Shown piece by piece: positions 161 through 28,562 of a stretch of 35,535 nucleotides of DNA (positions are counted from its first letter, which is position 1; every line of letters begins with the position of its first letter). Origin of the DNA: Clostridiales bacterium (GTDB lineage: Bacteria; Bacillota; Clostridia; Oscillospirales; CAG-272). The DNA lies in the NCBI GenBank assembly GCA_918290775.1, contig CAKJZF010000017.1, forward strand, positions 1-35,535. The letters are read 5' to 3'. The translations under genes and the position numbers were made by a program. The notes under the pieces were generated by a model. The model was not told the DNA's origin. It did no database searches and saw nothing but the letters and a program-made list of their open reading frames with translations.

Positions 161-985
161 TCATCCGAACATCGCCTGATCCACTTCGTCCAGTGAAGGG
201 AAGAGAAAGTCGGGTTTATCGGCGGGCGCGGCGGCGTCCACATCGGCGGGTTGGGTCTCGCCAGAGAGGACGAGGATAGCGGTAACACCATGGCGGCGAC
301 CGATGGCAATGTCGGTATAGAGACGATCGCCGAAGAAGCACATCTCGTCTTTTGTCACCCCCGTGATCTCGCAGATCATGTCCACCGTTTCGGGGTATGG
401 CTTGCCGAAATAGGTCGGCGTTTTTCCGGTGGAGGCGGTCACAAACGCCGCAATTGCACCGCTGTCGGGGATAAAGCCGGTCTCGGTCGGGCAGTTGAAA
501 TCGGGATGCGTTGAGAAATACTGCGCCCCGCCGCGGATCAGACGGCAGGCGTTGTCGAGCTTTTCGTATGTCAAAGTGGTGTCAAAACTGGTGATAACAA
601 TGTCGGCGCGATCCTCTTTCCCCGAAAGAAGGGGGATCCCGTTCTCGCGAAAGTTGTTTTCCAAATCGGGCGTTCCGACCAAATAAACGCTTTTGCCGGG
701 ATGATGGCGTTTGAGATATTCAACGGTCACATCGCCCGAGGTCAGAATCTCCGAGGAGGAGGGAGAAAACCCGAGGCGAGTCAGCTTCTCCAAATAGAAT
801 TTCGGAGAATGGGAGGCATTGTTGGTGAAGAACAGGACGCGGCGACCGCTCGCACGCAGATGGTTGATGAAGCGGATCGCGTAAGGGAAAACACGGTTGC
901 CGAGATAGATCGTTCCGTCCATATCAAATATGTAGAGCTTTTTTTCGTTCAGAAGCGAAATAGAAGGGTTTTCAAAATTCATCAT
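161..985 (-). CDS. HAD-IIA family hydrolase (NagD/AraL-like sugar-phosphate phosphatase)
   Basis: Motifs FDMDGT, FTNN, GKP, GDRLYTDI, VLSGET; GGAG RBS; start could be 985 or 982. Confidence 0.92.
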   Translation of the reverse strand: MMNFENPSISLLNEKKLYIFDMDGTIYLGNRVFPYAIRFINHLRASGRRVLFFTNNASHSPKFYLEKLTRLGFSPSSSEILTSGDVTVEYLKRHHPGKSVYLVGTPDLENNFRENGIPLLSGKEDRADIVITSFDTTLTYEKLDNACRLIRGGAQYFSTHPDFNCPTETGFIPDSGAIAAFVTASTGKTPTYFGKPYPETVDMICEITGVTKDEMCFFGDRLYTDIAIGRRHGVTAILVLSGETQPADVDAAAPADKPDFLFPSLDEVDQAMFG

Positions 986-1017
986 TTGATGCTCCGTTTC
1001 ATGAAATTGCTGTCATT

Positions 1018-1045
1018 ATCATACCATTTTTTTGCGTTTTGTCAA
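1018..1045 (-). promoter_or_regulatory. Sigma-A-type promoter for the NagD gene
   Basis: Minus strand TTGACA-16 nt-TATGAT with extended TG. Confidence 0.6.
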
Positions 1046-1116
1046 GTCTTTTCCCGGGAAAAAGCCGAAAAAGCCGCAAATAGTCGGTTCCTTTCGACAA
1101 AAATAAAAATTGTCTA

Positions 1117-1145
1117 TTGAAATAAGTGATTGAATATGATAAAAT
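1117..1145 (+). promoter_or_regulatory. Sigma-A-type promoter for the DAGK-PlsC-PHP cluster
   Basis: TTGAAA-17 nt-TAAAAT with extended TG. Confidence 0.65.
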
Positions 1146-1202
1146 AAATAGGAAATGGTTGCAAAATCATCCATGAAATTTGTCAAAAGGAGCGAAAAGA
1201 CC

Positions 1203-2072
1203 GTGTATCATGTGTTTTATAACCCCCTGTCGGGCAACGGAAGCGGCGCGGCTTGCGTCGAAAAGCTGAAAGAAATCATCACCGAGGAGATCAAATTCAC
1301 CGATGTGCGCGAGGTGAAGGATTACGCGTCCTATTTTGCCGCGCTGACCGAGGCGGATTCGGTTGTGGTTGCCGGAGGAGACGGCACCCTGAACCATTTT
1401 GTCAACGACATCGACGGCGTTGAGATCCGGAATGACGTCTATCTCTTTACCATGGGAACCGGAAACGACTTCAAGAATGACGTCGCACCCAATGAAGAAG
1501 GGCTGATCAAGATCAACGACTACATCAAGGATCTCCCGATTGTGGAGGTTAACGGTATGACGCGTCGTTTCATCAACGGCATCGGCTACGGAATTGACGG
1601 CTATTGTTGCGAGGTTGGCGACGAGCTGGCGAAAAAGAGCGACAAGCCGGTCAACTATGCGGGTATTGCCATCAAGGGTCTTCTGTTCCACTATAAGCCG
1701 ACGCACGCAACCGTGACGGTTGACGGCACGACCGAAGAATATAATCGCGTTTGGCTGGCGCCTTCCATGAACGGACGTTTCTACGGCGGCGGAATGAACA
1801 TCGCGCCGGCGCAGGATCGCCTCGCAACCCCCAAAACGCTTTCGGTGGTCGTTCTACACGGATCCGGGAAGCTCAAAACCCTCATGCTTTTTCCGTCCAT
1901 TTTCAAGGGAGAGCATATCAAGCATGAAAAGCAGGTCAGCATCCGGACGGGGAAGGACATCACCGTGAAGTTTGACCGTCCCGTGGCGCTCCAGATCGAC
2001 GGCGAAACCGTTCTCGGCGTCACCGAGTACACCGTCCATGCAACGGCGGCTCAGGCGAACGAAGCGGTCTGA
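1203..2072 (+). CDS. Diacylglycerol/lipid kinase family protein (YegS/DgkB-like)
   Basis: NPLSGNG, GGDGTLN, GTGNDF, GRFYGGG, QIDGE; start moved to GTG at 1203 behind AGGAG (1188-1192). Confidence 0.9.
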   Translation: MYHVFYNPLSGNGSGAACVEKLKEIITEEIKFTDVREVKDYASYFAALTEADSVVVAGGDGTLNHFVNDIDGVEIRNDVYLFTMGTGNDFKNDVAPNEEGLIKINDYIKDLPIVEVNGMTRRFINGIGYGIDGYCCEVGDELAKKSDKPVNYAGIAIKGLLFHYKPTHATVTVDGTTEEYNRVWLAPSMNGRFYGGGMNIAPAQDRLATPKTLSVVVLHGSGKLKTLMLFPSIFKGEHIKHEKQVSIRTGKDITVKFDRPVALQIDGETVLGVTEYTVHATAAQANEAV

Positions 2073-2087
2073 CGCGGGGGAAACGGA

Positions 2088-2888
2088 ATGTTCCTTTCTG
2101 CATTGTTTCTGATTTCCGCGGTGGCGGGCGCGTGCGGCATTGTTTTCGGCGCATCCGTCAGCCCTTGGTGGCTGTTTGCGCTGATTCCCGGGCTGTTTAT
2201 CGGGTGTACGCTGATTTACGTGATCTGCATCTATGTCATCTCGCTCCTGATCCCCAAGAGGGAACCGAAAAAATCGAGCGCGTTCTGCCGGTTGAATATC
2301 CGCCTGTTTTTGAATTGGTTGCTCTTTGTGCTCCGTGTGAAGGTTCATATCAAAGGGGAGAAGATGCTTCCGGGCGAGCCGTGCGTCATCGTTTCCAACC
2401 ATCGGTCGGCGTTTGACCCCATGACTGTGATTGCAAAGGTCAAACGGAAGAAATTGCTCTTCATCTCAAAGCCGGGCAATTTCAAGGCGCCCATCGCCGG
2501 TGCGTTCATTCGTGGCGCGGCATACTTGCCGATCGACCGCGACAACGGAATGCGTGCTTTGCGCACGCTTAAGGACGCAGCCGAGCGCATGAAGGCGGAG
2601 GGTGCGGACTTTGGTATCTACCCGGAGGGATCGCGCAGCAAAACCGGGGAACTTCAGGAGTTTAAGTCGGGCGCGTTTTATCTTGCGAAGAAGGCGGACG
2701 CGCCTATCGCGGTGATGACGGCATGGAACACCGAAAAAGTCGGCAAAAAGTTCCCGATCCGGCGAACCCACGTCTATCTGGACTTTATCGGCGTGGTCGA
2801 CCGCGAGACGGTTCGCTCCGCAACGATGGATGAGCTGGCGGCGCTGACGCGCGGCATGGTGGAGGAGCATTTGAAAACGCTATCTTGA
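2088..2888 (+). CDS. plsC: 1-acyl-sn-glycerol-3-phosphate acyltransferase (PlsC family)
   Basis: Two N-terminal TM segments; NHRSAFD (HxxxxD), FISK, IDR, YPEGSRS, FKSGAF. Confidence 0.88.
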   Translation: MFLSALFLISAVAGACGIVFGASVSPWWLFALIPGLFIGCTLIYVICIYVISLLIPKREPKKSSAFCRLNIRLFLNWLLFVLRVKVHIKGEKMLPGEPCVIVSNHRSAFDPMTVIAKVKRKKLLFISKPGNFKAPIAGAFIRGAAYLPIDRDNGMRALRTLKDAAERMKAEGADFGIYPEGSRSKTGELQEFKSGAFYLAKKADAPIAVMTAWNTEKVGKKFPIRRTHVYLDFIGVVDRETVRSATMDELAALTRGMVEEHLKTLS

Positions 2889-2897
2889 AACAGCGAG

Positions 2898-3731
2898 GTG
2901 CATGAAGTGAAATTTCCGAAAATCAGTTTACACAACCATACCGTTTTTTGCGACGGAACCGACACGCCGGAGGCAATGGTTCTCGCGGCGATAGAGGAGG
3001 GTGTGGAGACGATCGGTTTTTCGGGGCATTCATGCACCTCGTTTGATCTGTCCTATTGCATGACGCGGGAAAAGACCGAGGCGTACCGCGCGGAGATTTT
3101 GCAGTTGCGCGAGAAATACCGTGACCGCATTCGGATTCTGCTCGGCATTGAGCGCGATTACTACGCCGATCCCGATGACGCGCAGTATGATTACGTCATC
3201 GGATCCGTTCACTACATTGTGGCGGACGACGGCGCAATCTGCCCGGTTGACGAAAGCCGCGAGCAGGTGGTGAGCGACGTTCAAAAGCATTTCGGCGGGA
3301 ACGTCTACCGTTGGACGAAGCGCTATTATGAAACGCTTGCATTGATTGCGGAAAAGACCCACTGCAACATGGTAGGGCATTTTGACTTGGTTCAGAAATT
3401 CAACGGCGACGGAACCCTGTTTGATTCGGAGCTTCCGAGCTACCGGCTTCCGTTGCTGGACGCGATGGAGACTCTGACCAATTCGGACGTGATTTTTGAA
3501 ATCAATACCGCTGGGATGCGCAAACGAAAGATTCCTTATCCGTCCCCCGATATCCTGCGGTGGTTGGCACAGCACAACGCGAGAACCGTCATCACGGCGG
3601 ATGCGCATCGGAAAGAGGACATTCTCTCCGGCTTTGAATCCGCGGTGCTCTATGCAAAGGCGTGCGGCGTCGGAGGTTTTACCGTTCCGCGCGGCGACGC
3701 ATGGGTCACCGTTTCGATGGGGGACGCATGA
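2898..3731 (+). CDS. PHP-family phosphatase, histidinol-phosphatase HisJ/HisK-like
   Basis: HNHTxxCDG, SGH, GIERD, IGSVH, GHFD, EINT, ADAH metal motifs; GTG start. Confidence 0.85.
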   Translation: MHEVKFPKISLHNHTVFCDGTDTPEAMVLAAIEEGVETIGFSGHSCTSFDLSYCMTREKTEAYRAEILQLREKYRDRIRILLGIERDYYADPDDAQYDYVIGSVHYIVADDGAICPVDESREQVVSDVQKHFGGNVYRWTKRYYETLALIAEKTHCNMVGHFDLVQKFNGDGTLFDSELPSYRLPLLDAMETLTNSDVIFEINTAGMRKRKIPYPSPDILRWLAQHNARTVITADAHRKEDILSGFESAVLYAKACGVGGFTVPRGDAWVTVSMGDA

Positions 3732-3788
3732 CCCATTCAGAAAGTACTGGATCCATCTGCTCCTTCTGATTGATTCAGTGATTTCTAA

Positions 3789-3828
3789 AAAAATCCCTGC
3801 GGCAAAATCGTTCACCGCAGGGATTTTT
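3789..3828. terminator. Bidirectional intrinsic terminator between the PHP gene and the GLUG/peptide unit
   Basis: AAAAATCCCTGCGG...CCGCAGGGATTTTT with A/T tails on both sides. Confidence 0.85.
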
Positions 3829-3837
3829 CAATCCGGG

Positions 3838-3987
3838 TCAGTCCCAGAAAATATTCCAATTCCAAAGGTCGCCTTGAGACGCTTCCGTATAAACCAAACT
3901 TGTGCGGATTACATCGCATTCGGAGACGGGCGAGAGGGACAATTCAGGCGAGAGATAGGGCTTTTTGAGATCGGTTACTTGTTCCAT
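3838..3987 (-). CDS. 49-aa peptide MEQVTDLKKPYLSPELSLSPVSECDVIRTSLVYTEASQGDLWNWNIFWD with a YxxPxL leader-like motif
   Basis: Translated by hand: ATG 3987 to TGA 3838; GGAGG at 4004-4000; overlaps the GLUG gene by 13 nt; ends 9 nt before the terminator; not in the ORF track. Confidence 0.7.
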   Translation of the reverse strand: MEQVTDLKKPYLSPELSLSPVSECDVIRTSLVYTEASQGDLWNWNIFWD

Positions 3988-5444
3988 GTTACCGTGTAAC
4001 CTCCGTCTGTTTTGGTCAAAGTAAAGGAATAGGTATCGGTCGGTTCGGCGCCGGATGCGTAGGCGTAAACTGAAAAACTGACCGAGTCTCCTGTATCCAG
4101 CGTGCCGCCGGGAAAGGTTGCGGCAAAGAGATAACCGTCCGATCCGCGGAGCTGTTGTGCTGTGTATACCAAAGTCTGTTCATCGTAAATGCCGAGCAGA
4201 GAGGTGAAAACCGAGCTGCAGGGAAAATTCAGTTCGCCTTTCGGGGATCCGATGGCGGAGATGCGGAAGCCCGCGTCGGTGTATGTGGTTTCCGCGTCGA
4301 TGCTGGCGATGAAGCGGATCGCGAGCGTTGAACCTTCGGAAAGCTGAATACCGTGAAAACGAACGCCGAGCGTTTCTTCCTTTGTCTCCTCCGGCACCTC
4401 GCTTTCGGCATCGTAGTGAGAGCAGTCGGTTTGGGTAACGATTGCGCTCCCTTTCTTCCCGTAAATGCCTCCGGTTTTGCTACCGATTATGGTTCCTTCG
4501 GAGCGGATGCCGGAGAGATCAACCGAAACGGCTTGAATATCCCCGCTGGAGATATTGCTGTTGTTAGCGGAGCCGATGGCTCCTCCGGCAGTTGTCACCG
4601 CACTTACATCCGCGCGGCAAGCACAGTCTTTTAGCAAAAGGTTGCCTTGCACATTGCCGATCAGACCGCCGGCTGTTGTGCCGCCGGTCACATTTCCTTT
4701 GTTGGTGCAGTTCTCAATCTGCGCGGCTTTTTGCCCTTCGGTGCGATCACGAACGCTGTCAACCCGCGCGATCAGACCGCCACAGAAGGTGTTGCCGGAA
4801 ACGGGAGCTAAGTTGAGTACATTCGAAATGACGGCGCCTTCCGCAACGCGGGCGGCAAGCGACGCCGCGCACCCGTTGGTATATCCGTCCGCCTCCGCAA
4901 AGGTGCAACCCGCGCCGAGTACGACATTCCGGATCACCGCGCCGGATTGTACGGCGCCGAACAGCGCGGTATAGGCGTATGTCTTTTTGGTGGATCCGAC
5001 GGTCTTGACCGCAAGGTTGTCGATCACATACCCACGACCGTCAAAGGTGCCGCCGAAAGAAACACCCGGAAATGCGGCAGAATATGCGGCAAGACCGTTT
5101 CCGATCGGTTCAAAATCGGTCACGCCGCTCATGTCGATTGAGGCGCAGAGACAGACATGAACTCCCGCGCTTCGGAATCTCGAATTGTTGTTCACCAAAA
5201 ATGAAAAGCGACGCAAATCCTCCGCGTCATAAATCCCATACCATATGGAGCTATTCACTTCGTCATCGTTTTCATAGTCAAACGAGGTGATTTTGACAAT
5301 CGTTTCGCCGGAAGCAATGTCTTCGCGTGCGACCGAAGCGTCGTATCCGATGGCATTTGCCAAGGGGCAGGAAAACAGGATCAGCACCGAGATCAGAAAA
5401 TGGAACAGGAACGGCTTGATCCGTTTCAGAACGTGTTTCTTCAT
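3975..5444 (-). CDS. Secreted GLUG-motif (beta-solenoid) protein with a separate C-terminal beta-rich domain
   Basis: Signal peptide MKKHVLKR..ANA; FGGTFDGRGYVIDNL, ALFG, GGLIA, IENCTNKGNVTG..AGGLIG; acidic linker ESEVPEETKEET; start at 5444 behind AAGGA. Confidence 0.8.
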   Translation of the reverse strand: MKKHVLKRIKPFLFHFLISVLILFSCPLANAIGYDASVAREDIASGETIVKITSFDYENDDEVNSSIWYGIYDAEDLRRFSFLVNNNSRFRSAGVHVCLCASIDMSGVTDFEPIGNGLAAYSAAFPGVSFGGTFDGRGYVIDNLAVKTVGSTKKTYAYTALFGAVQSGAVIRNVVLGAGCTFAEADGYTNGCAASLAARVAEGAVISNVLNLAPVSGNTFCGGLIARVDSVRDRTEGQKAAQIENCTNKGNVTGGTTAGGLIGNVQGNLLLKDCACRADVSAVTTAGGAIGSANNSNISSGDIQAVSVDLSGIRSEGTIIGSKTGGIYGKKGSAIVTQTDCSHYDAESEVPEETKEETLGVRFHGIQLSEGSTLAIRFIASIDAETTYTDAGFRISAIGSPKGELNFPCSSVFTSLLGIYDEQTLVYTAQQLRGSDGYLFAATFPGGTLDTGDSVSFSVYAYASGAEPTDTYSFTLTKTDGGYTVTWNK

Positions 5445-5477
5445 GATCGTTCCTTTCATTTTTTTATATTCGACCGT

Positions 5478-5506
5478 ATTTTAACATGAATTTCCAATTT
5501 TTTCAA
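5478..5506 (-). promoter_or_regulatory. Sigma-A-type promoter for the GLUG protein and peptide
   Basis: Minus strand TTGAAA-17 nt-TAAAAT with extended TG. Confidence 0.65.
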
Positions 5507-9046: not shown

Positions 9047-9838
9047 TCAGTGCTTTTCGGAAACCTCTCGGCGATATTGCGTCGGGGTCATTCCGTAGTA
9101 ACGCTTGAACAACTCGCGAAAATAGATGGCGGAAGAATAGCCGGTTGCGGATAAAAGCGTTTCCATAGAAACATCGCCGCGGCGAAGGAGCTTTGTGGCG
9201 AGATCCAGGCGGATCTCGTTGCGGTAGTCGGTGGGAGAGATGTTCCATTCGCGCTTAAAAACATGGTGCAGATGGGACTCACTGACATGACAGGCGGCGG
9301 CAAGGTCGGCAACCGTATAGTTTTGCGCAAAGTTGGCGCGGATATAGCTTACGGCGGCAGTGAGGATCGCGGATCCAGTGGGGTCGGTTTCCGGCGTCAG
9401 ATACGGGAGTGCATCTGAAAGGAGCGCAAACAGTTCCGATAGCGCACGCAACTGTTTCGTCTTCGTCCCCTCCATCATGTTCTCAATGGCGCGAATGCGG
9501 TCGCCCGTTTTGGTAACGGAGAGAAAAGGAATGTGGGCGGGGTGGAAACGAAGGGGGGAATCTCCGCTTTCGGTCAGGTGGATCATGCAATATTCGATCT
9601 CTGGAGTACCTGTCCAGCGGGAGCGGTAGCGCGTTCCGGCGGGTAGAAAAAAGAAACTGCCGGTGGGAAGATTCAAAATTTCGTGTCCTGTCTCCAGATG
9701 TGTTTCACCCTGTAGAATATAGCCGAAGCTGGTGTGAATTTTACCGGCGCTTCCGTCGCAAAAATGGGCGGTTGCATAGCGCATATGCCGAACGGAAATA
9801 TCTTCAAAATGAATATCGGCAATTCGTTTGATCTCCAT
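9047..9838 (-). CDS. AraC-family transcriptional regulator
   Basis: Cupin-like N terminus; C-terminal LAAACHVSESHLHHVFK..SP..Y..IRL..GYSSAIYFRELFKRYYGMTPTQYR; ATG 9838 behind GGAG. Confidence 0.92.
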   Translation of the reverse strand: MEIKRIADIHFEDISVRHMRYATAHFCDGSAGKIHTSFGYILQGETHLETGHEILNLPTGSFFFLPAGTRYRSRWTGTPEIEYCMIHLTESGDSPLRFHPAHIPFLSVTKTGDRIRAIENMMEGTKTKQLRALSELFALLSDALPYLTPETDPTGSAILTAAVSYIRANFAQNYTVADLAAACHVSESHLHHVFKREWNISPTDYRNEIRLDLATKLLRRGDVSMETLLSATGYSSAIYFRELFKRYYGMTPTQYRREVSEKH

Positions 9839-15954: not shown

Positions 15955-17433
15955 ATGCCTGATTTTGCGATCTATCAAGACATTGCCGAGCGCACGGGCG
16001 GCGATATTTACGTCGGTGTTGTGGGACCGGTGCGCAGCGGAAAATCCACATTCATCAAACGGTTCATGGAGTCGGTCGTTTTGCCGAACATCGGGGAAGG
16101 CTATTCCCGCGACCGCGCCCGCGACGAACTGCCGCAATCCGCCGGCGGAAAAACGGTGATGACAACCGAGCCGAAATTCATTCCCGAGGAAGCGGTTCCG
16201 ATCGTGATCGGTGAGAACGCGCGGATGCGCGTTCGCATGATTGATTGCGTCGGCTACATTGTCCCCGACGCGATGGGAACGGTTGAGGACGGAGCGCCCC
16301 GTATGGTGCGAACCCCTTGGCAGGAAGAGCCGATGCCATTTGCGGAAGCAGCGGAAACAGGAACGAGAAAGGTCATCACCGACCATTCCACCATCGGTAT
16401 GCTTGTCACCACAGACGGAACCATCGGTGAAATTCCGCGCGAATCCTATGTGGAAGCCGAGGAACGCATCGTTGACGAATTAAAGGCGCTGAAGAAGCCT
16501 TTTGCTATCATTCTCAATTCCAAATCCCCGTCCTCCGAGGCGGCAACCGCGCTTGCTTATGAATTGGAGGGAAAGTACGGCGTTCCCGTGGCGCTGGTCA
16601 ACTGCCTTGAGCTTGACGCAGATGACATCCGTGAAATCTTGGGGCTTGTACTTGAGGAATTTCCCGTTTCGGAAGTGTCGGTTTCGCTCCCGGAGTGGAC
16701 GACTGCTCTTGAGGAAACGCATCCCATCCGTGCCTCTGTTCTTGCCTCGATCCGCAAATGCGCCGAAAAGGTGGCGAAGATGGGCGACGTTAAAGAAGCG
16801 TTCTCGGGCATGAACGAGAATGAATATATCGAGCGTGCGGAAGTGGAGGACATCGACCTTGGGACCGGAAAAGCAAACATCCGGCTGGAGACCGCTCCGG
16901 CGCTTTACTATCAAGTGATCAGCGAGTTGACGGGTCTTTCCATCAGCGATGAAAAGGGCTTGATGGAGACTCTGCGTGATCTTGCCGATGTAAAAACAAA
17001 ATATGACAAGGTTGCCGAGGCGCTCCGCGAGGTCAACGAAACCGGCTATGGAATCGTGATGCCCGATGTGGAGGAATTGCGCCTCGATGAGCCGCAAATC
17101 GCCAAACAGTCGGGCGGCTACGGCGTCAAGCTCCGCGCGGCGGCGCAGTCGATCCATATGATCCGCGCGAACATTGAGACTGAAATCAACCCCGTAGTCG
17201 GAACCGAGCAGCAGTCCGAGGATCTTGTCAAATATCTGCTTCGCGAGTTTGAAACTGATCCCCGCAGCATTTGGGAGTCCAATCTCTTCGGCAGATCGCT
17301 CTACGAGATTGTCAACGAGGGGCTGCACGCCAAACTCGACCACATTCCGGAGTCCTCCCGTAAGAAGCTCTCCGAAACGCTGGAGCGAATCGTCAACGAG
17401 GGAAGCAACGGTCTGATCTGCATTCTGCTGTAA
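15955..17433 (+). CDS. spoIVA: Stage IV sporulation protein A (coat morphogenetic ATPase)
   Basis: IYQDIAERTGGDIYVGVVGPVRSGKSTFIKRF, DELPQS, MTTEPKF, IDCVG, C-terminal GLICILL; 492 aa. Confidence 0.97.
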   Translation: MPDFAIYQDIAERTGGDIYVGVVGPVRSGKSTFIKRFMESVVLPNIGEGYSRDRARDELPQSAGGKTVMTTEPKFIPEEAVPIVIGENARMRVRMIDCVGYIVPDAMGTVEDGAPRMVRTPWQEEPMPFAEAAETGTRKVITDHSTIGMLVTTDGTIGEIPRESYVEAEERIVDELKALKKPFAIILNSKSPSSEAATALAYELEGKYGVPVALVNCLELDADDIREILGLVLEEFPVSEVSVSLPEWTTALEETHPIRASVLASIRKCAEKVAKMGDVKEAFSGMNENEYIERAEVEDIDLGTGKANIRLETAPALYYQVISELTGLSISDEKGLMETLRDLADVKTKYDKVAEALREVNETGYGIVMPDVEELRLDEPQIAKQSGGYGVKLRAAAQSIHMIRANIETEINPVVGTEQQSEDLVKYLLREFETDPRSIWESNLFGRSLYEIVNEGLHAKLDHIPESSRKKLSETLERIVNEGSNGLICILL

Positions 17434-25544: not shown

Positions 25545-25575
25545 CCCGTGAAGCGCGATGGAAGGGGAGAAACAA

Positions 25576-26472
25576 ATGGAAATCTATACGCATACCGATC
25601 TTGCAAGCGAAAGTGTTTCCGGGGAGGAATCGTCGCTTTCCGGCGTTTTGCAAAGCGAACGCGAGGTTGGCGGCTTCACTGTTCGGAGGATCCGCATTTG
25701 CAGCGAGGGAGCGGCGGAAAAGCTCGGGAAACCGATCGGGGACTATTTTACGCTGGATTGCGGACGCGCGGATCACATGGACGCCGACAGCCGCGAACGG
25801 CTGGCACACGTCCTTTCGGGGGAGTTGCGCGGACTTGCCGAACGATCCTGCGGAAAACCAGCAAACGCTTCACTCACCGTTTTGATCGTCGGACTCGGCA
25901 ACATTGCGCTGACCGCCGACGCCATCGGACCTCTGACGATTCGCCGCCTTACGGCGACCGCGCATCTGAAAACGCTGGAGCCGGAGCTTTACCGCTCGCT
26001 CGGCTGTTCCGCCGTTTTCCTGCTCTCGCCCGGGGTTCTCGGGCAGAGCGGAATGGAAACGGGAGTGCTTGTCCGTGCAGTGGCGGATCGGGTCTTCCCG
26101 GATTTGATCGTTGCCGTTGACGCGCTTGCCGCGCGGGATCTGGAACGCCTCGCCGCAACGATTCAGCTTTCCGACGCGGGCATCGCGCCCGGATCCGGCG
26201 TCGGGAATCGCCGGTGGGCTTTGACAAGGGAGAGCATGGGCGTTCCCGTGCTGGCGCTCGGTGTGCCGACTGTGGTCGGGTCGTCTACGCTTGTTTATGA
26301 TGCCTTGGCACGCGCGGGAATCACGGAGCCGTGCGAGGAGCTACAGGCGGTTTTGGAGAACGGACGTAATTTTTTTGTTTCGCTCAAAGAGAGCGACGAG
26401 GTGACCGAGCATGTCTGTTCCATCCTGTCGCGAGCTCTTTCTTTGGCGTTTTTGGGCGGAATGGAGCTATGA
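25576..26472 (+). CDS. gpr: Germination protease (GPR endopeptidase)
   Basis: TDLA processing site, VGLGN..TADAIGP, PGVLGQSGMET, VDALAAR, IQLSDAGIAPGSGVGN, GVPTVV; upstream of spoIIP. Confidence 0.93.
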   Translation: MEIYTHTDLASESVSGEESSLSGVLQSEREVGGFTVRRIRICSEGAAEKLGKPIGDYFTLDCGRADHMDADSRERLAHVLSGELRGLAERSCGKPANASLTVLIVGLGNIALTADAIGPLTIRRLTATAHLKTLEPELYRSLGCSAVFLLSPGVLGQSGMETGVLVRAVADRVFPDLIVAVDALAARDLERLAATIQLSDAGIAPGSGVGNRRWALTRESMGVPVLALGVPTVVGSSTLVYDALARAGITEPCEELQAVLENGRNFFVSLKESDEVTEHVCSILSRALSLAFLGGMEL

Positions 26473-26474
26473 CC

Positions 26475-26503
26475 GCATAAAACCCGTCCAGATCGCATAG
26501 ATT
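26475..26503 (+). promoter_or_regulatory. Putative sigma-E promoter for spoIIP
   Basis: GCATAAA-14 nt-CATAGATT. Confidence 0.65.
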
Positions 26504-26528
26504 GAAATAAAAACGGAGGATCAAATTC

Positions 26529-27587
26529 ATGGAGAACGACCCAAACAGAGAGTTGCCGCCGCCCGCCGAGCAGGTACGCTTGGAAAAACCGGTCGGGAAG
26601 CCGGTTTTCCGAATGCTTGCGTTTATCGTTTGTTTGGCAGTGCTCGTTGCGGCGTTTGCGGTCAGCGGGTTGTGGTCAAGCCGGGGTGACATCACCGAAA
26701 CGGCTTTGGGCGGGTTGTTCCACCGTCGCCGCGTTTCGGAAACGGAAAGCAATTCGACGGATGACCGTGAGCGATCCGACGAACCGACAACCACCGAAGC
26801 CTCTCCCCGCGAGGACTTGCAGCCGGACGCGCCCAAAACACGTCCAGACGGAGCGATTTCGGTTTTGGCGCAGACGATTCCCGAGGCGGATCACCCGGTT
26901 TTCGACGGAGAACCGTCGGAGTGGCGAACCGAGCTTGACGGGGAGGGTCCCGCTGTGTTGGTCATCGTCACCCGCCCGAGCGAGGCATATCTGCCTGAAT
27001 CCGCGGAGTGGATTGAAGGGGATCCGGGCGATCTGATCTGGTCGGAAGATACGGATCACGGGGTATCGCGGGTTGGGGAAACGTTTTGCCGGGTGTTGAA
27101 TGAAAACGGTATTTCTGCCTTCCTCTGCGCCGATGAAGAACCCTCGGAAAGCGTTTTGGGATCCGGCGCCCGCGCCGCGGAATTGATTGCGAAGATGCTG
27201 GAACTCTACCCCGGCGTCCGCTATGTTGTGGACATCGGTCGCGATGTTGTGACGGACGAGGCGGGGAACTATCTTCGGACTTTGACCGACGGGACAACGG
27301 ACCCGACCGCACAGATCCTCGCCGTGGTGGGAAGCGACCAAAGCGGACTTCCTTGCCCGGCATGGCACGAGAATCTTGCCTTCGCGTGCGCATTCGGCGA
27401 CCTGATGAACCACACGGTTCCAACGTCATTTCGAGGAATCGTACTGCGGGACACCCCTTGTAATCAGCAGATTGCACCGCGTTCACTTTCGCTGAAAGTC
27501 GGATCGGGAGCCAATACGGCGGAGGAAGCGGAAAGAGCCGCCGCACTTGCCGGAAGGGTTTTGGCGCAACTCTTGCTTACATCATAA
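26529..27587 (+). CDS. spoIIP: SpoIIP-family protein with apparently substituted catalytic residues
   Basis: Position after gpr; one TM helix; TxxxEAY, V..VG..L...GI, YP..YVVDIGRD, VVGSD, W..NL.FA, NQ.I..VGS..NT..EA; GGAGG RBS. Confidence 0.82.
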   Translation: MENDPNRELPPPAEQVRLEKPVGKPVFRMLAFIVCLAVLVAAFAVSGLWSSRGDITETALGGLFHRRRVSETESNSTDDRERSDEPTTTEASPREDLQPDAPKTRPDGAISVLAQTIPEADHPVFDGEPSEWRTELDGEGPAVLVIVTRPSEAYLPESAEWIEGDPGDLIWSEDTDHGVSRVGETFCRVLNENGISAFLCADEEPSESVLGSGARAAELIAKMLELYPGVRYVVDIGRDVVTDEAGNYLRTLTDGTTDPTAQILAVVGSDQSGLPCPAWHENLAFACAFGDLMNHTVPTSFRGIVLRDTPCNQQIAPRSLSLKVGSGANTAEEAERAAALAGRVLAQLLLTS

Positions 27588-27652: not shown

Positions 27653-27716
27653 GTTTTTCCAAAAAAAGAATTTTTTTGGAAAAACCATTTACAAATCGGT
27701 TTTTTTGTGGTATAAT
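27653..27716 (+). promoter_or_regulatory. Promoter of the LexA/CI-like gene with an adjacent 15-bp inverted repeat
   Basis: GTTTTTCCAAAAAAA-GAA-TTTTTTTGGAAAAAC (27653-27685), then TTTACA-17 nt-TATAAT (27688-27716) with extended TG. Confidence 0.72.
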
Positions 27717-27746
27717 GATACCGTAACCGGAAAACGGAGGCTTTTT

Positions 27747-28562
27747 ATGGAAACCTACATCGACCGTATTAAAAAGATGAAAGCGGAGCGAAAGCTCACA
27801 AACGATCACCTATCCGAGCTTTCGGGAATCCCGCTCGGGACCTTGAGCAAGCTGATGGCAGGCATGAGCGAATCCCCCAAGCTCTCCAACATCGTTGCGA
27901 TCTGCAACGCGCTGGATTGCTCGGTGGACTATATTGTTACGGGCAACCCGGAAAACACCAACAACTACACACTTTCCAAAGACGAGATCCGCATGATGGA
28001 ACAATACCGCGAACTGGATCGCTGGGGGCGGGAGCTGACCGGCGAAGTCATCGCACGGGAAGCGGAGCGCATAGCGGCAACGAGGGTGGACGGCGACGAA
28101 AAGCCGACGGAAAAAATTGACGCGGGCACCGCACGGATTCTCAAGCCCATCAAAGCGGCGGGGCGGTTTGCCGGCGCCGAACCGCACACGGGGAAGCGCA
28201 CCGTCATGCTCTATGAATTGCCGGTTTCCGCGGGTGTCGGTGTATATTTGGATGACAGCCGTGCGGAACGCGTCAGTATACCGAACAGCGAAAAAACCGC
28301 CGAGGCGGACTATGCCTTGCGCATCAGCGGCAACAGTATGGAGCCGAAGTATCACAACGGAGACGTACTGCTGGTGCAGAATGCAGAGTCGGTTGAAGTC
28401 GGCGAAGCGGGTATTTTTCTTCTGGACGGCAACGGATTCTTCAAGATCTACGGCGGCGACCGCCTGATCTCGCTCAACCCCGAGTACGGTCCCATTCTGC
28501 TCAAGGATTTTGACAATGTCCAGTGCCGGGGGCGCGTGATCGGCAGGTTACGCAGAAAATAA
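27747..28562 (+). CDS. XRE-HTH plus peptidase S24 (LexA/CI-like) repressor
   Basis: HTH LSELSGIPLGTLSKL; cleavage site VSAG; catalytic Ser in ISGNSMEP and Lys in FFKIY; LISLNPEY; ATG 27747 behind GGAGG. Confidence 0.9.
   Translation: METYIDRIKKMKAERKLTNDHLSELSGIPLGTLSKLMAGMSESPKLSNIVAICNALDCSVDYIVTGNPENTNNYTLSKDEIRMMEQYRELDRWGRELTGEVIAREAERIAATRVDGDEKPTEKIDAGTARILKPIKAAGRFAGAEPHTGKRTVMLYELPVSAGVGVYLDDSRAERVSIPNSEKTAEADYALRISGNSMEPKYHNGDVLLVQNAESVEVGEAGIFLLDGNGFFKIYGGDRLISLNPEYGPILLKDFDNVQCRGRVIGRLRRK

Follow-up and report, generated by a model that had tools for sequence, protein, structure and literature searches.

The 49-residue open reading frame P0001, on the minus strand at positions 3838-3987 of the window (the whole 35,535-nucleotide stretch of DNA analysed, contig C17), is likely to encode a RiPP precursor that is processed in trans and represents a clostridial version of the Linear Polyphosphorylated Peptide (LPP) class. 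In the mechanism we propose, its leader (KKPYLSPEL...) would bind a discrete PqqD-type RRE from contig C7 via the motif YxxPxL. The RRE would then present the peptide to the two enzymes encoded next to it: an HprK-like kinase, which would probably phosphorylate the invariant Ser30, and a signal-peptidase-I-like serine protease, which would cut the leader near DVI-R-T/S. The remaining core of about 20 residues, acidic and Trp-rich, would then be exported. We infer RRE binding, Ser30 phosphorylation, the cleavage site and export from homology to the LPP system.

The peptide gene is the second of a two-gene unit, with the following features:

3838-3987, minus strand: precursor peptide gene P0001, 49 residues plus stop codon, recognized by its translation, a family profile match and orthologues in the same frame.

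3975-5459, minus strand: upstream co-transcribed gene, 494 residues, with a signal peptide, a beta-helix at residues ~138-349 and a C-terminal beta-sandwich at residues 366-492.

4000-4004, minus strand: Shine-Dalgarno sequence GGAGG, 12 nt 5' of the ATG and within the final codons of the upstream gene.

3788-3829, minus strand: intrinsic terminator, a hairpin and U-run immediately 3' of the peptide stop codon.

5478-5506, minus strand: promoter-like site TTGAAA-17-TAAAAT with TG upstream, 5' of the two-gene unit, a consensus match.

3901-3987, minus strand: predicted leader, residues 1-29 (or 1-27, depending on the putative cleavage site), with YxxPxL and D25.

3940-3957, minus strand: Y11-x-x-P14-x-L16, within the predicted leader.

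3898-3915, minus strand: motif D25 to S30, with D25 invariant.

3838-3900, minus strand: predicted core SLVYTEASQGDLWNWNIFWD plus stop codon, starting at the invariant Ser30.

Translation of the peptide gene gives MEQVTDLKKPYLSPELSLSPVSECDVIRTSLVYTEASQGDLWNWNIFWD, with Y11, P14, L16 and S30 present. It is identical to the sequence in the preliminary description, whose GGAGG and 13-nt overlap of the peptide ORF with the upstream gene were both recovered as well. That description had set the ORF between a ‘GLUG’ gene and a terminator. The terminator is borne out by folding (-27.3 kcal/mol, z -6.1, 0 of 200 shuffles as stable), although a simple scan missed the hairpin, whereas the GLUG label found no support in Pfam: the upstream protein matched no Pfam family above cut-off, and GLUG, at E 1.4, fell below it. 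The promoter-like site counts as a consensus match only, one such match being found against 2.2 expected in shuffles.

The first 9 kb alone contain 101 ORFs of at least 30 residues, and the size of this one is not by itself above chance. Because similar-sized ORFs are common here, the case for a real gene rests on homology. Searches of Pfam and NCBIfam with the focal peptide gave no family, and a word-index search with the single peptide as query returned only itself. Against the family profile described below, it scored E 1.4e-15 within its own genome and 2.9e-11 among 1.84 billion proteins. A chance, untranslated frame overlapping the upstream gene's 3' end would fit the plentiful short ORFs at this G+C content, as well as the location of the Shine-Dalgarno sequence and ATG within that gene's conserved GGYTVTW codons. 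It would also fit the RNA data, in which an identical 224-nt bovine-gut metatranscriptome contig is confined to nt 4664-4887, inside the upstream gene, and the contig search gave no coverage of the peptide ORF. Such a frame is not expected, however, to score these profile E-values, to keep its amino acid sequence past the upstream stop codon in three orthologues, or to have a paralogue with identical layout in the same genome. We regard it as effectively excluded because the homologous family is large and the focal gene is conserved in orthologues. On the strength of the family match and the conserved orthologues, the 49-residue ORF is a genuine gene.

The three orthologues come from congeners (G240, G264 and G272) in which the upstream protein has counterparts of 36-48% identity, each with a family member on its 3' side (3/3). 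The G264 pair has the same 13-nt overlap as the focal pair, a similar Shine-Dalgarno sequence occurs in G264 and G240, and the orthologue loci L145 and L146 share the arrangement. Conservation of the Shine-Dalgarno sequence and ATG is confounded, since the same nucleotides encode the conserved GG[YF]TVTW end of the upstream protein. The peptide tails align as TSL..(x)..S.GD[LV]W.W.I.W, with a conserved GD[LV]WxWxI. Both frame and tail are kept in all three genomes, which answers the preliminary description's question of frame conservation in close relatives.

The paralogue is encoded elsewhere in the genome of P0001 (contig C32, 3260-3421, plus strand). It encodes 53 residues (MKKAYTTPELWLFLLSNEDVIATS...DWFD, tail ...GKDWFD) and begins 19 nt 3' of the gene for a 980-residue signal-peptide protein that has no Pfam family (ORF 298-3240); a GC-rich inverted repeat or terminator follows on its 3' side. 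Of 24 genomes from the genus, 20 had short ORFs matching a profile built from these two sequences, the richest with 16; among 16 genomes of other families, one gave a match. An alignment of 22 members from the one genus served as the profile for wider searches. Through the word index it retrieved 60 database proteins, all unnamed; in a sample of 201 genomes from the order, 37 gave matches; and among 1.84 billion proteins it found 3,893 cluster representatives (clusters at 50% identity) at E<=1e-3. The best 150 of these 3,893 representatives are nearly all 32-64 residues long and align from residue 1. Homologous small ORFs are thus present in relatives, and the proposed membership of a poorly described KKxYxxP...DVIxTS family holds. 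Pfam and NCBIfam searches with the 22 members gave only weak, scattered matches. By these searches the family is very large, unnamed and found in gut and rumen Clostridia.

Its members combine a fixed head, KKxYxxPE..(x)..EDVIxTS, with a variable, acidic, aromatic tail. The logo of 193 members reads K-K-x-Y-x-x-P-E-[MLAI]-E-[VLI]-[IVL]-x-[LF]-x-x-E-D-[VI]-[IL]-[TAR]-[TA]-S-G, with the Tyr conserved in 98%, the Pro in 96%, the Asp in 99% and the Ser in 100%, and with a Tyr-to-Ser span of 20 residues in 190 of the 193. This agrees with the RRE-type leader that had been proposed from the YxxPxL of P0001. Tails have a median length of 21 residues and are 14% Asp and 17% Gly; Cys occurs in 3 of 193, and W, F or Y is found among the last eight residues in 158.

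Two loci are worth recording for their layout. At L047 (G022, contig C47), the peptide at 5081-5212 ends in ...DEEGNAWTPWV, and the adjoining upstream ORF, a 131-residue lipoprotein-like protein (4637-5029), has the near-identical C-terminus ...DEHGMTWTPWV. At L065 (G127, contig C23), members at 5145-5255 and 9597-9713 (minus strand) flank the gene for a 1351-residue secreted protein; one of the two carries an in-frame TAA.

Pfam searches of 32 window ORFs found no RRE, cyclase, radical SAM enzyme or peptide exporter, as the preliminary description had also concluded, and matched housekeeping and sporulation genes only (SpoIVA, SpoIIP, GPR, PheST, ClpXP, trigger factor). The genes at 15955-17430 and 25558-27584, for SpoIVA, the germination protease and SpoIIP, indicate that the host belongs to a spore-forming clostridial lineage. 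The search for PqqD/RRE genes elsewhere that the description had called for was successful: contig C7 of this genome encodes a strong stand-alone RRE, and 4 of 4 further genomes tested encode one as well. On C7 it is the middle gene of three adjacent or overlapping same-strand genes, in the order kinase-RRE-peptidase:

C7 630-1334, same strand as the RRE gene: HprK-like kinase, a 235-residue P-loop protein, assigned from weak sequence hits and an AF2 model.

C7 1355-1618, same strand as the kinase gene: discrete PqqD-type RRE (PF05402, 9e-18).

C7 1618-2076, same strand and abutting the RRE gene: signal-peptidase-I-like (S26-type) protease, 153 residues (TIGR02228, 2e-5).

The kinase matched ScmC and HprK_rel_A only weakly and gave no hit in the PDB by sequence. 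Its AF2 model (pLDDT 94.6) matched HprK/P of L. casei with probability 1.00 and TMt 0.49-0.54, and its P-loop, G-x-G-K-[ST], is invariant. The closest PDB matches of the RRE were TbiB1 (2e-5) and LppB (9x8z_B, 4e-4), E-values that do not separate LppB from lasso B1 proteins. It does keep a conserved Asp aligned to D70 of LppB, which is described in the available text of the LPP paper as hydrogen-bonding the leader Tyr (Popov et al., Nat Commun 2026, PMC13381572). The peptidase matched TIGR02228 (sigpep_I_arch) weakly, and its profile matched SPase I structures at 6e-4; the 24 orthologues compared all keep Ser23, His63 and Asp78. One of its orthologues hit Peptidase_S24. The window itself contains a gene with LexA-like HTH and Peptidase_S24 domains (27705-28559, plus strand), a repressor unrelated to the S26-type leader peptidase of C7.

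The trio is kept in 56 of the 76 loci examined. An ABC exporter gene and a PF14907 (NTP_transf_5) gene are both inside the cassette of G201, and one or the other is in those of G189, G050, G106 and G171. Neither is found beside the cassette of the host genome. PF14907 was not found anywhere in that genome, which is 84% complete; it occurs in 4 of 5 near-complete congeners, at loci separate from the cassette.

The focal gene is on C17 and the cassette on C7, which puts the precursor outside the cluster; because the contigs are separate, the link between them is made by family and co-occurrence, not by locus. Of the 201 genomes sampled from the order, 37 were peptide-positive, and all but one of these had the kinase gene (36 of 37), as did 33 of the 164 that were peptide-negative; the Fisher p of 2e-19 overstates the co-occurrence because related genomes are not independent and were counted as if they were. 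The one kinase-less peptide-positive genome (G119) has a weak partial match to the peptide profile. Among 30 families sampled, all 12 peptide-positive families were kinase-positive and 10 had neither gene. The 33 genomes with the kinase and no peptide may reflect a profile that was built from one genus and misses diverged members, or a cassette that serves other substrates. Congeneric precursors are mostly remote from the cassette. Elsewhere the two do meet: G050, G106, G160, G201 and G171 each have a member gene 0.1-3.5 kb upstream of, and in the same orientation as, the cassette, and this layout recurs in 2 of the 68 loci fetched around kinase homologues, making seven genomes in all. The RRE operon on another contig, the co-occurrence by family and the occasional adjacency together support the processing in trans that had been suggested from the window.

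A YxxPxL leader is also what a lasso peptide precursor would have, and the RRE, as noted, resembles lasso B1 proteins. Thr would occupy the penultimate leader position if cleavage fell after Ser30, and 3 of the 22 members weakly match the lasso-leader model NF033528 (best E 0.05). The enzymes for lasso formation are a different matter. Across five genomes of the genus, no match to Transglut_core3 (B2, PF13471) was above cut-off, and Asn_synthase (PF00733) gave only weak PP-loop-type matches, in G000 (the host genome), G016 and G022. The core does not comply either: counted from S30, Glu is residue 6 and Asp residue 11, and counted from L31, Glu is residue 5, so that neither plausible cleavage site leaves an Asp or Glu at core positions 7-9. 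We therefore agree with the preliminary description that the peptide does not fit the lasso rules, and consider a lasso product exceedingly improbable.

The same description had pointed to cross-linking of WNW by a radical SAM enzyme, as in RiPPs of the triceptide or darobactin type, and the W-N-W and F-W aromatics of the tail, together with the aromatic-rich tails of the family at large, would suit that chemistry. A radical SAM gene does separate a family member from the cassette in one genome (G171). The searches gave this idea no support: SPASM (PF13186) had 0 matches in the host genome and in G016 (97% complete), Cys is almost absent from the tails, and the tails are variable, with no fixed aromatic-x-x motif. 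We give a radical-SAM cross-linked product very little credence.

Two radical SAM genes near family members deserve separate mention. In G171 (L074, contig C57, 1684-6438, minus strand), a gene with Radical_SAM and Fer4_12 domains and a PqqD-like stretch lies between a Cys-containing member (...DVICTSGCGYGEH...) and genes for an NTP transferase, a kinase and a peptidase; this locus may represent a hybrid pathway. In G127, an RRE-SPASM enzyme is encoded near family members, and its N-terminus is presumably that of the SCIFF maturase. We took this enzyme for an unrelated SCIFF-type neighbour and set it aside; it is missing from G000 and G016.

What most members have beside them is a gene for a large protein. 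In the genus, 16 of 23 members with long flanks lie 8-27 nt 3' of an ORF of 336-1300 residues (the 16 include one 101-residue fragment, cut by a contig end), four lie 48-103 nt 3' of an ORF and three precede a signal-peptide ORF. By a crude signal-peptide heuristic, 14 of 20 upstream ORFs look secreted, versus 74 of 410 long ORFs in the genome (18%). These upstream proteins are diverse: mostly they have no Pfam family, and otherwise they contain GH42, phosphoesterase or lectin-like domains. BLAST links 9 of 21 through a C-terminal beta-sandwich domain of ~150 residues with the pattern ...G.Y.F......P...G..TFTVTPY..., for which there is no Pfam model (L033, L034, L037-L040, L043, L045 and window positions 3975-4400). 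One C-terminal domain common to all upstream partners was considered and rejected, only those 9 of 21 being linked. In the AF2 model of the focal upstream protein (pLDDT 78), the beta-helix resembles the beta-helix region of the pneumococcal IgA1 protease (Foldseek probability 1.00, query TM 0.33-0.36), and the C-terminal sandwich has a Foldseek likeness to CBM21-like modules.

The peptide and residues 37-494 of the upstream protein were co-folded. The median score was 0.51 (0.57, 0.47 and 0.51) versus 0.02 for the best of three controls, with contact agreement between runs of at least 34% and partner pLDDT of at least 41, and the verdict was ‘weak support’. Of 157 solved complexes, 116 scored high enough to pass, as did 2 of 215 mismatched pairs, a rough calibration with custom alignments in use; at scores of 0.60 or less, only 18 of the 157 solved complexes passed, plus both of the passing mismatches. 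The tool itself warns that, for a guess with little prior likelihood, most passes are false. We treat the modelled complex as a lead, not a finding.

These observations could be read without any cassette, along the lines of the partner role that the preliminary description gave as its alternative: the peptide would stay unmodified and be devoted to the secreted beta-helix protein with which it is co-transcribed, perhaps anchoring it, modulating it or serving it as a chaperone-like strand. The gene pair kept in three other genomes with its 13-nt overlap, the steady spacing behind large ORFs, the excess of secreted-looking neighbours and the co-fold all favour a partnership of some kind. However, what the family conserves is the RRE-type head and not the tail, and independence from the cassette leaves that head unexplained. 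Moreover, the upstream proteins are mutually unrelated in 12 of 21 cases, and some members adjoin the cassette without such a secreted protein. We consider an unmodified partner unlikely.

The LPP reading can accommodate the secreted neighbours in another way. LPP-type machinery might serve dozens of scattered precursors, with each mature phosphopeptide acting as an extracellular, protein-specific accessory of the secreted neighbour to whose gene its own is coupled in translation or transcription, for example as a cell-surface tether or as a ligand of the neighbour's C-terminal beta-sandwich. This is a speculative proposal that we hold to be possible and not probable. If true, the RiPP pathway would be a general post-secretion partner system and not a maker of antibiotics or signals.

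Three known systems can be compared with this one. With triceptides and darobactin, the peptide shares only a short aromatic-rich core; it differs in having no associated radical SAM/SPASM enzyme in the host genome and no conserved aromatic-x-x. The likeness to paeninodin-type phosphorylated lasso peptides of Bacillota is closer, in that a discrete B1-type RRE reads a [Y/W]xxP leader and an HprK-like kinase and an NTP transferase are the tailoring enzymes. In contrast to paeninodin, there is neither a B2 cysteine protease nor a C cyclase here, the leader residue is Tyr and not Trp, and the leader is predicted to be removed by a serine signal-peptidase homologue; the product is therefore presumably linear.

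The LPP class was defined in Bacilli (Popov et al., Nat Commun 2026, PMC13381572). According to the available text of that paper, the cluster lppA-K-B-S-D-N encodes a precursor, an HprK-like kinase, a discrete RRE, a peptidase, a pump and an NTP transferase, where LppS is a signal-peptidase-I-like leader peptidase of the archaeal type and the pump is MsbA-like. The leader motif is YxxPxVLxHQxIxFETxxS, with a Tyr-to-Ser span of 19. Cleavage follows T-1 and is RRE-dependent, and the motif's final, conserved Ser is core Ser3, which is polyphosphorylated; the final product and its biological role are given there as unknown (PMC13381572). The string ‘Clostridi’ has 0 occurrences in the main text of PMC13381572. 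In its Supplementary Data 1, as available, side clusters 4 and 9 include a small number of peptidases from Clostridia, marked as RRE co-located, and we tentatively read the ND entries after the RRE column in those rows as precursors not determined. A literature search on the LPP class names gave no further paper, and searches on PF14907 and on RRE/HPr-kinase gave nothing closer than PMC13381572.

Transferred to P0001, the correspondence of the 100% conserved Ser to the polyphosphorylated S3 of LPPs would make Ser30 the candidate phospho-acceptor. Cleavage would be expected between I27 and R28 if spacing decides, or between T29 and S30 if residue type does.

As far as the LPP class is described in the available text, the likeness begins with the enzymes: the order of the C7 genes is that of lppK-lppB-lppS, with the same enzyme set, and in several genomes an ABC exporter and NTP_transf_5 join the trio to give the full LPP set. 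The precursors of both systems also have an N-terminal YxxPx[V/L] head, closed by an invariant Ser, and continue into a hypervariable C-terminus, and both systems are without a macrolactam cyclase. The differences, measured against the same text, are mainly in the precursors. The leader here is KKxYxxPE..EDVIxTS with a Tyr-to-Ser span of 20, as opposed to YxxPxVLxHQxIxFETxxS with 19 in Bacilli, and at its N-terminus the focal peptide is six residues longer than the Bacilli consensus. Cores are short, with a median of 21 residues. Up to 16 precursor genes per genome are scattered away from the cassette, and most copies are directly 3' of genes for large secreted proteins and not in capsule loci. 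Within this genus, only kinase, RRE and peptidase are left in the cassette, with the NTP transferase at another locus, and the family's hosts are Clostridia of gut and rumen that are uncultured.

The kind of pathway is already known, and the variant looks new in its leader, its short cores, its many scattered copies and its coupling to secreted-protein genes. LPPs have so far been studied only in Bacilli, and the present finding would extend the pathway to a gut and rumen clostridial family of 3,893 clusters, in which precursors can be numerous, short and scattered. Genome-mining tools that seek precursors only beside their enzymes would miss almost all such genes. The steady placement of these precursors 3' of secreted-protein genes offers a concrete, testable lead to their function.
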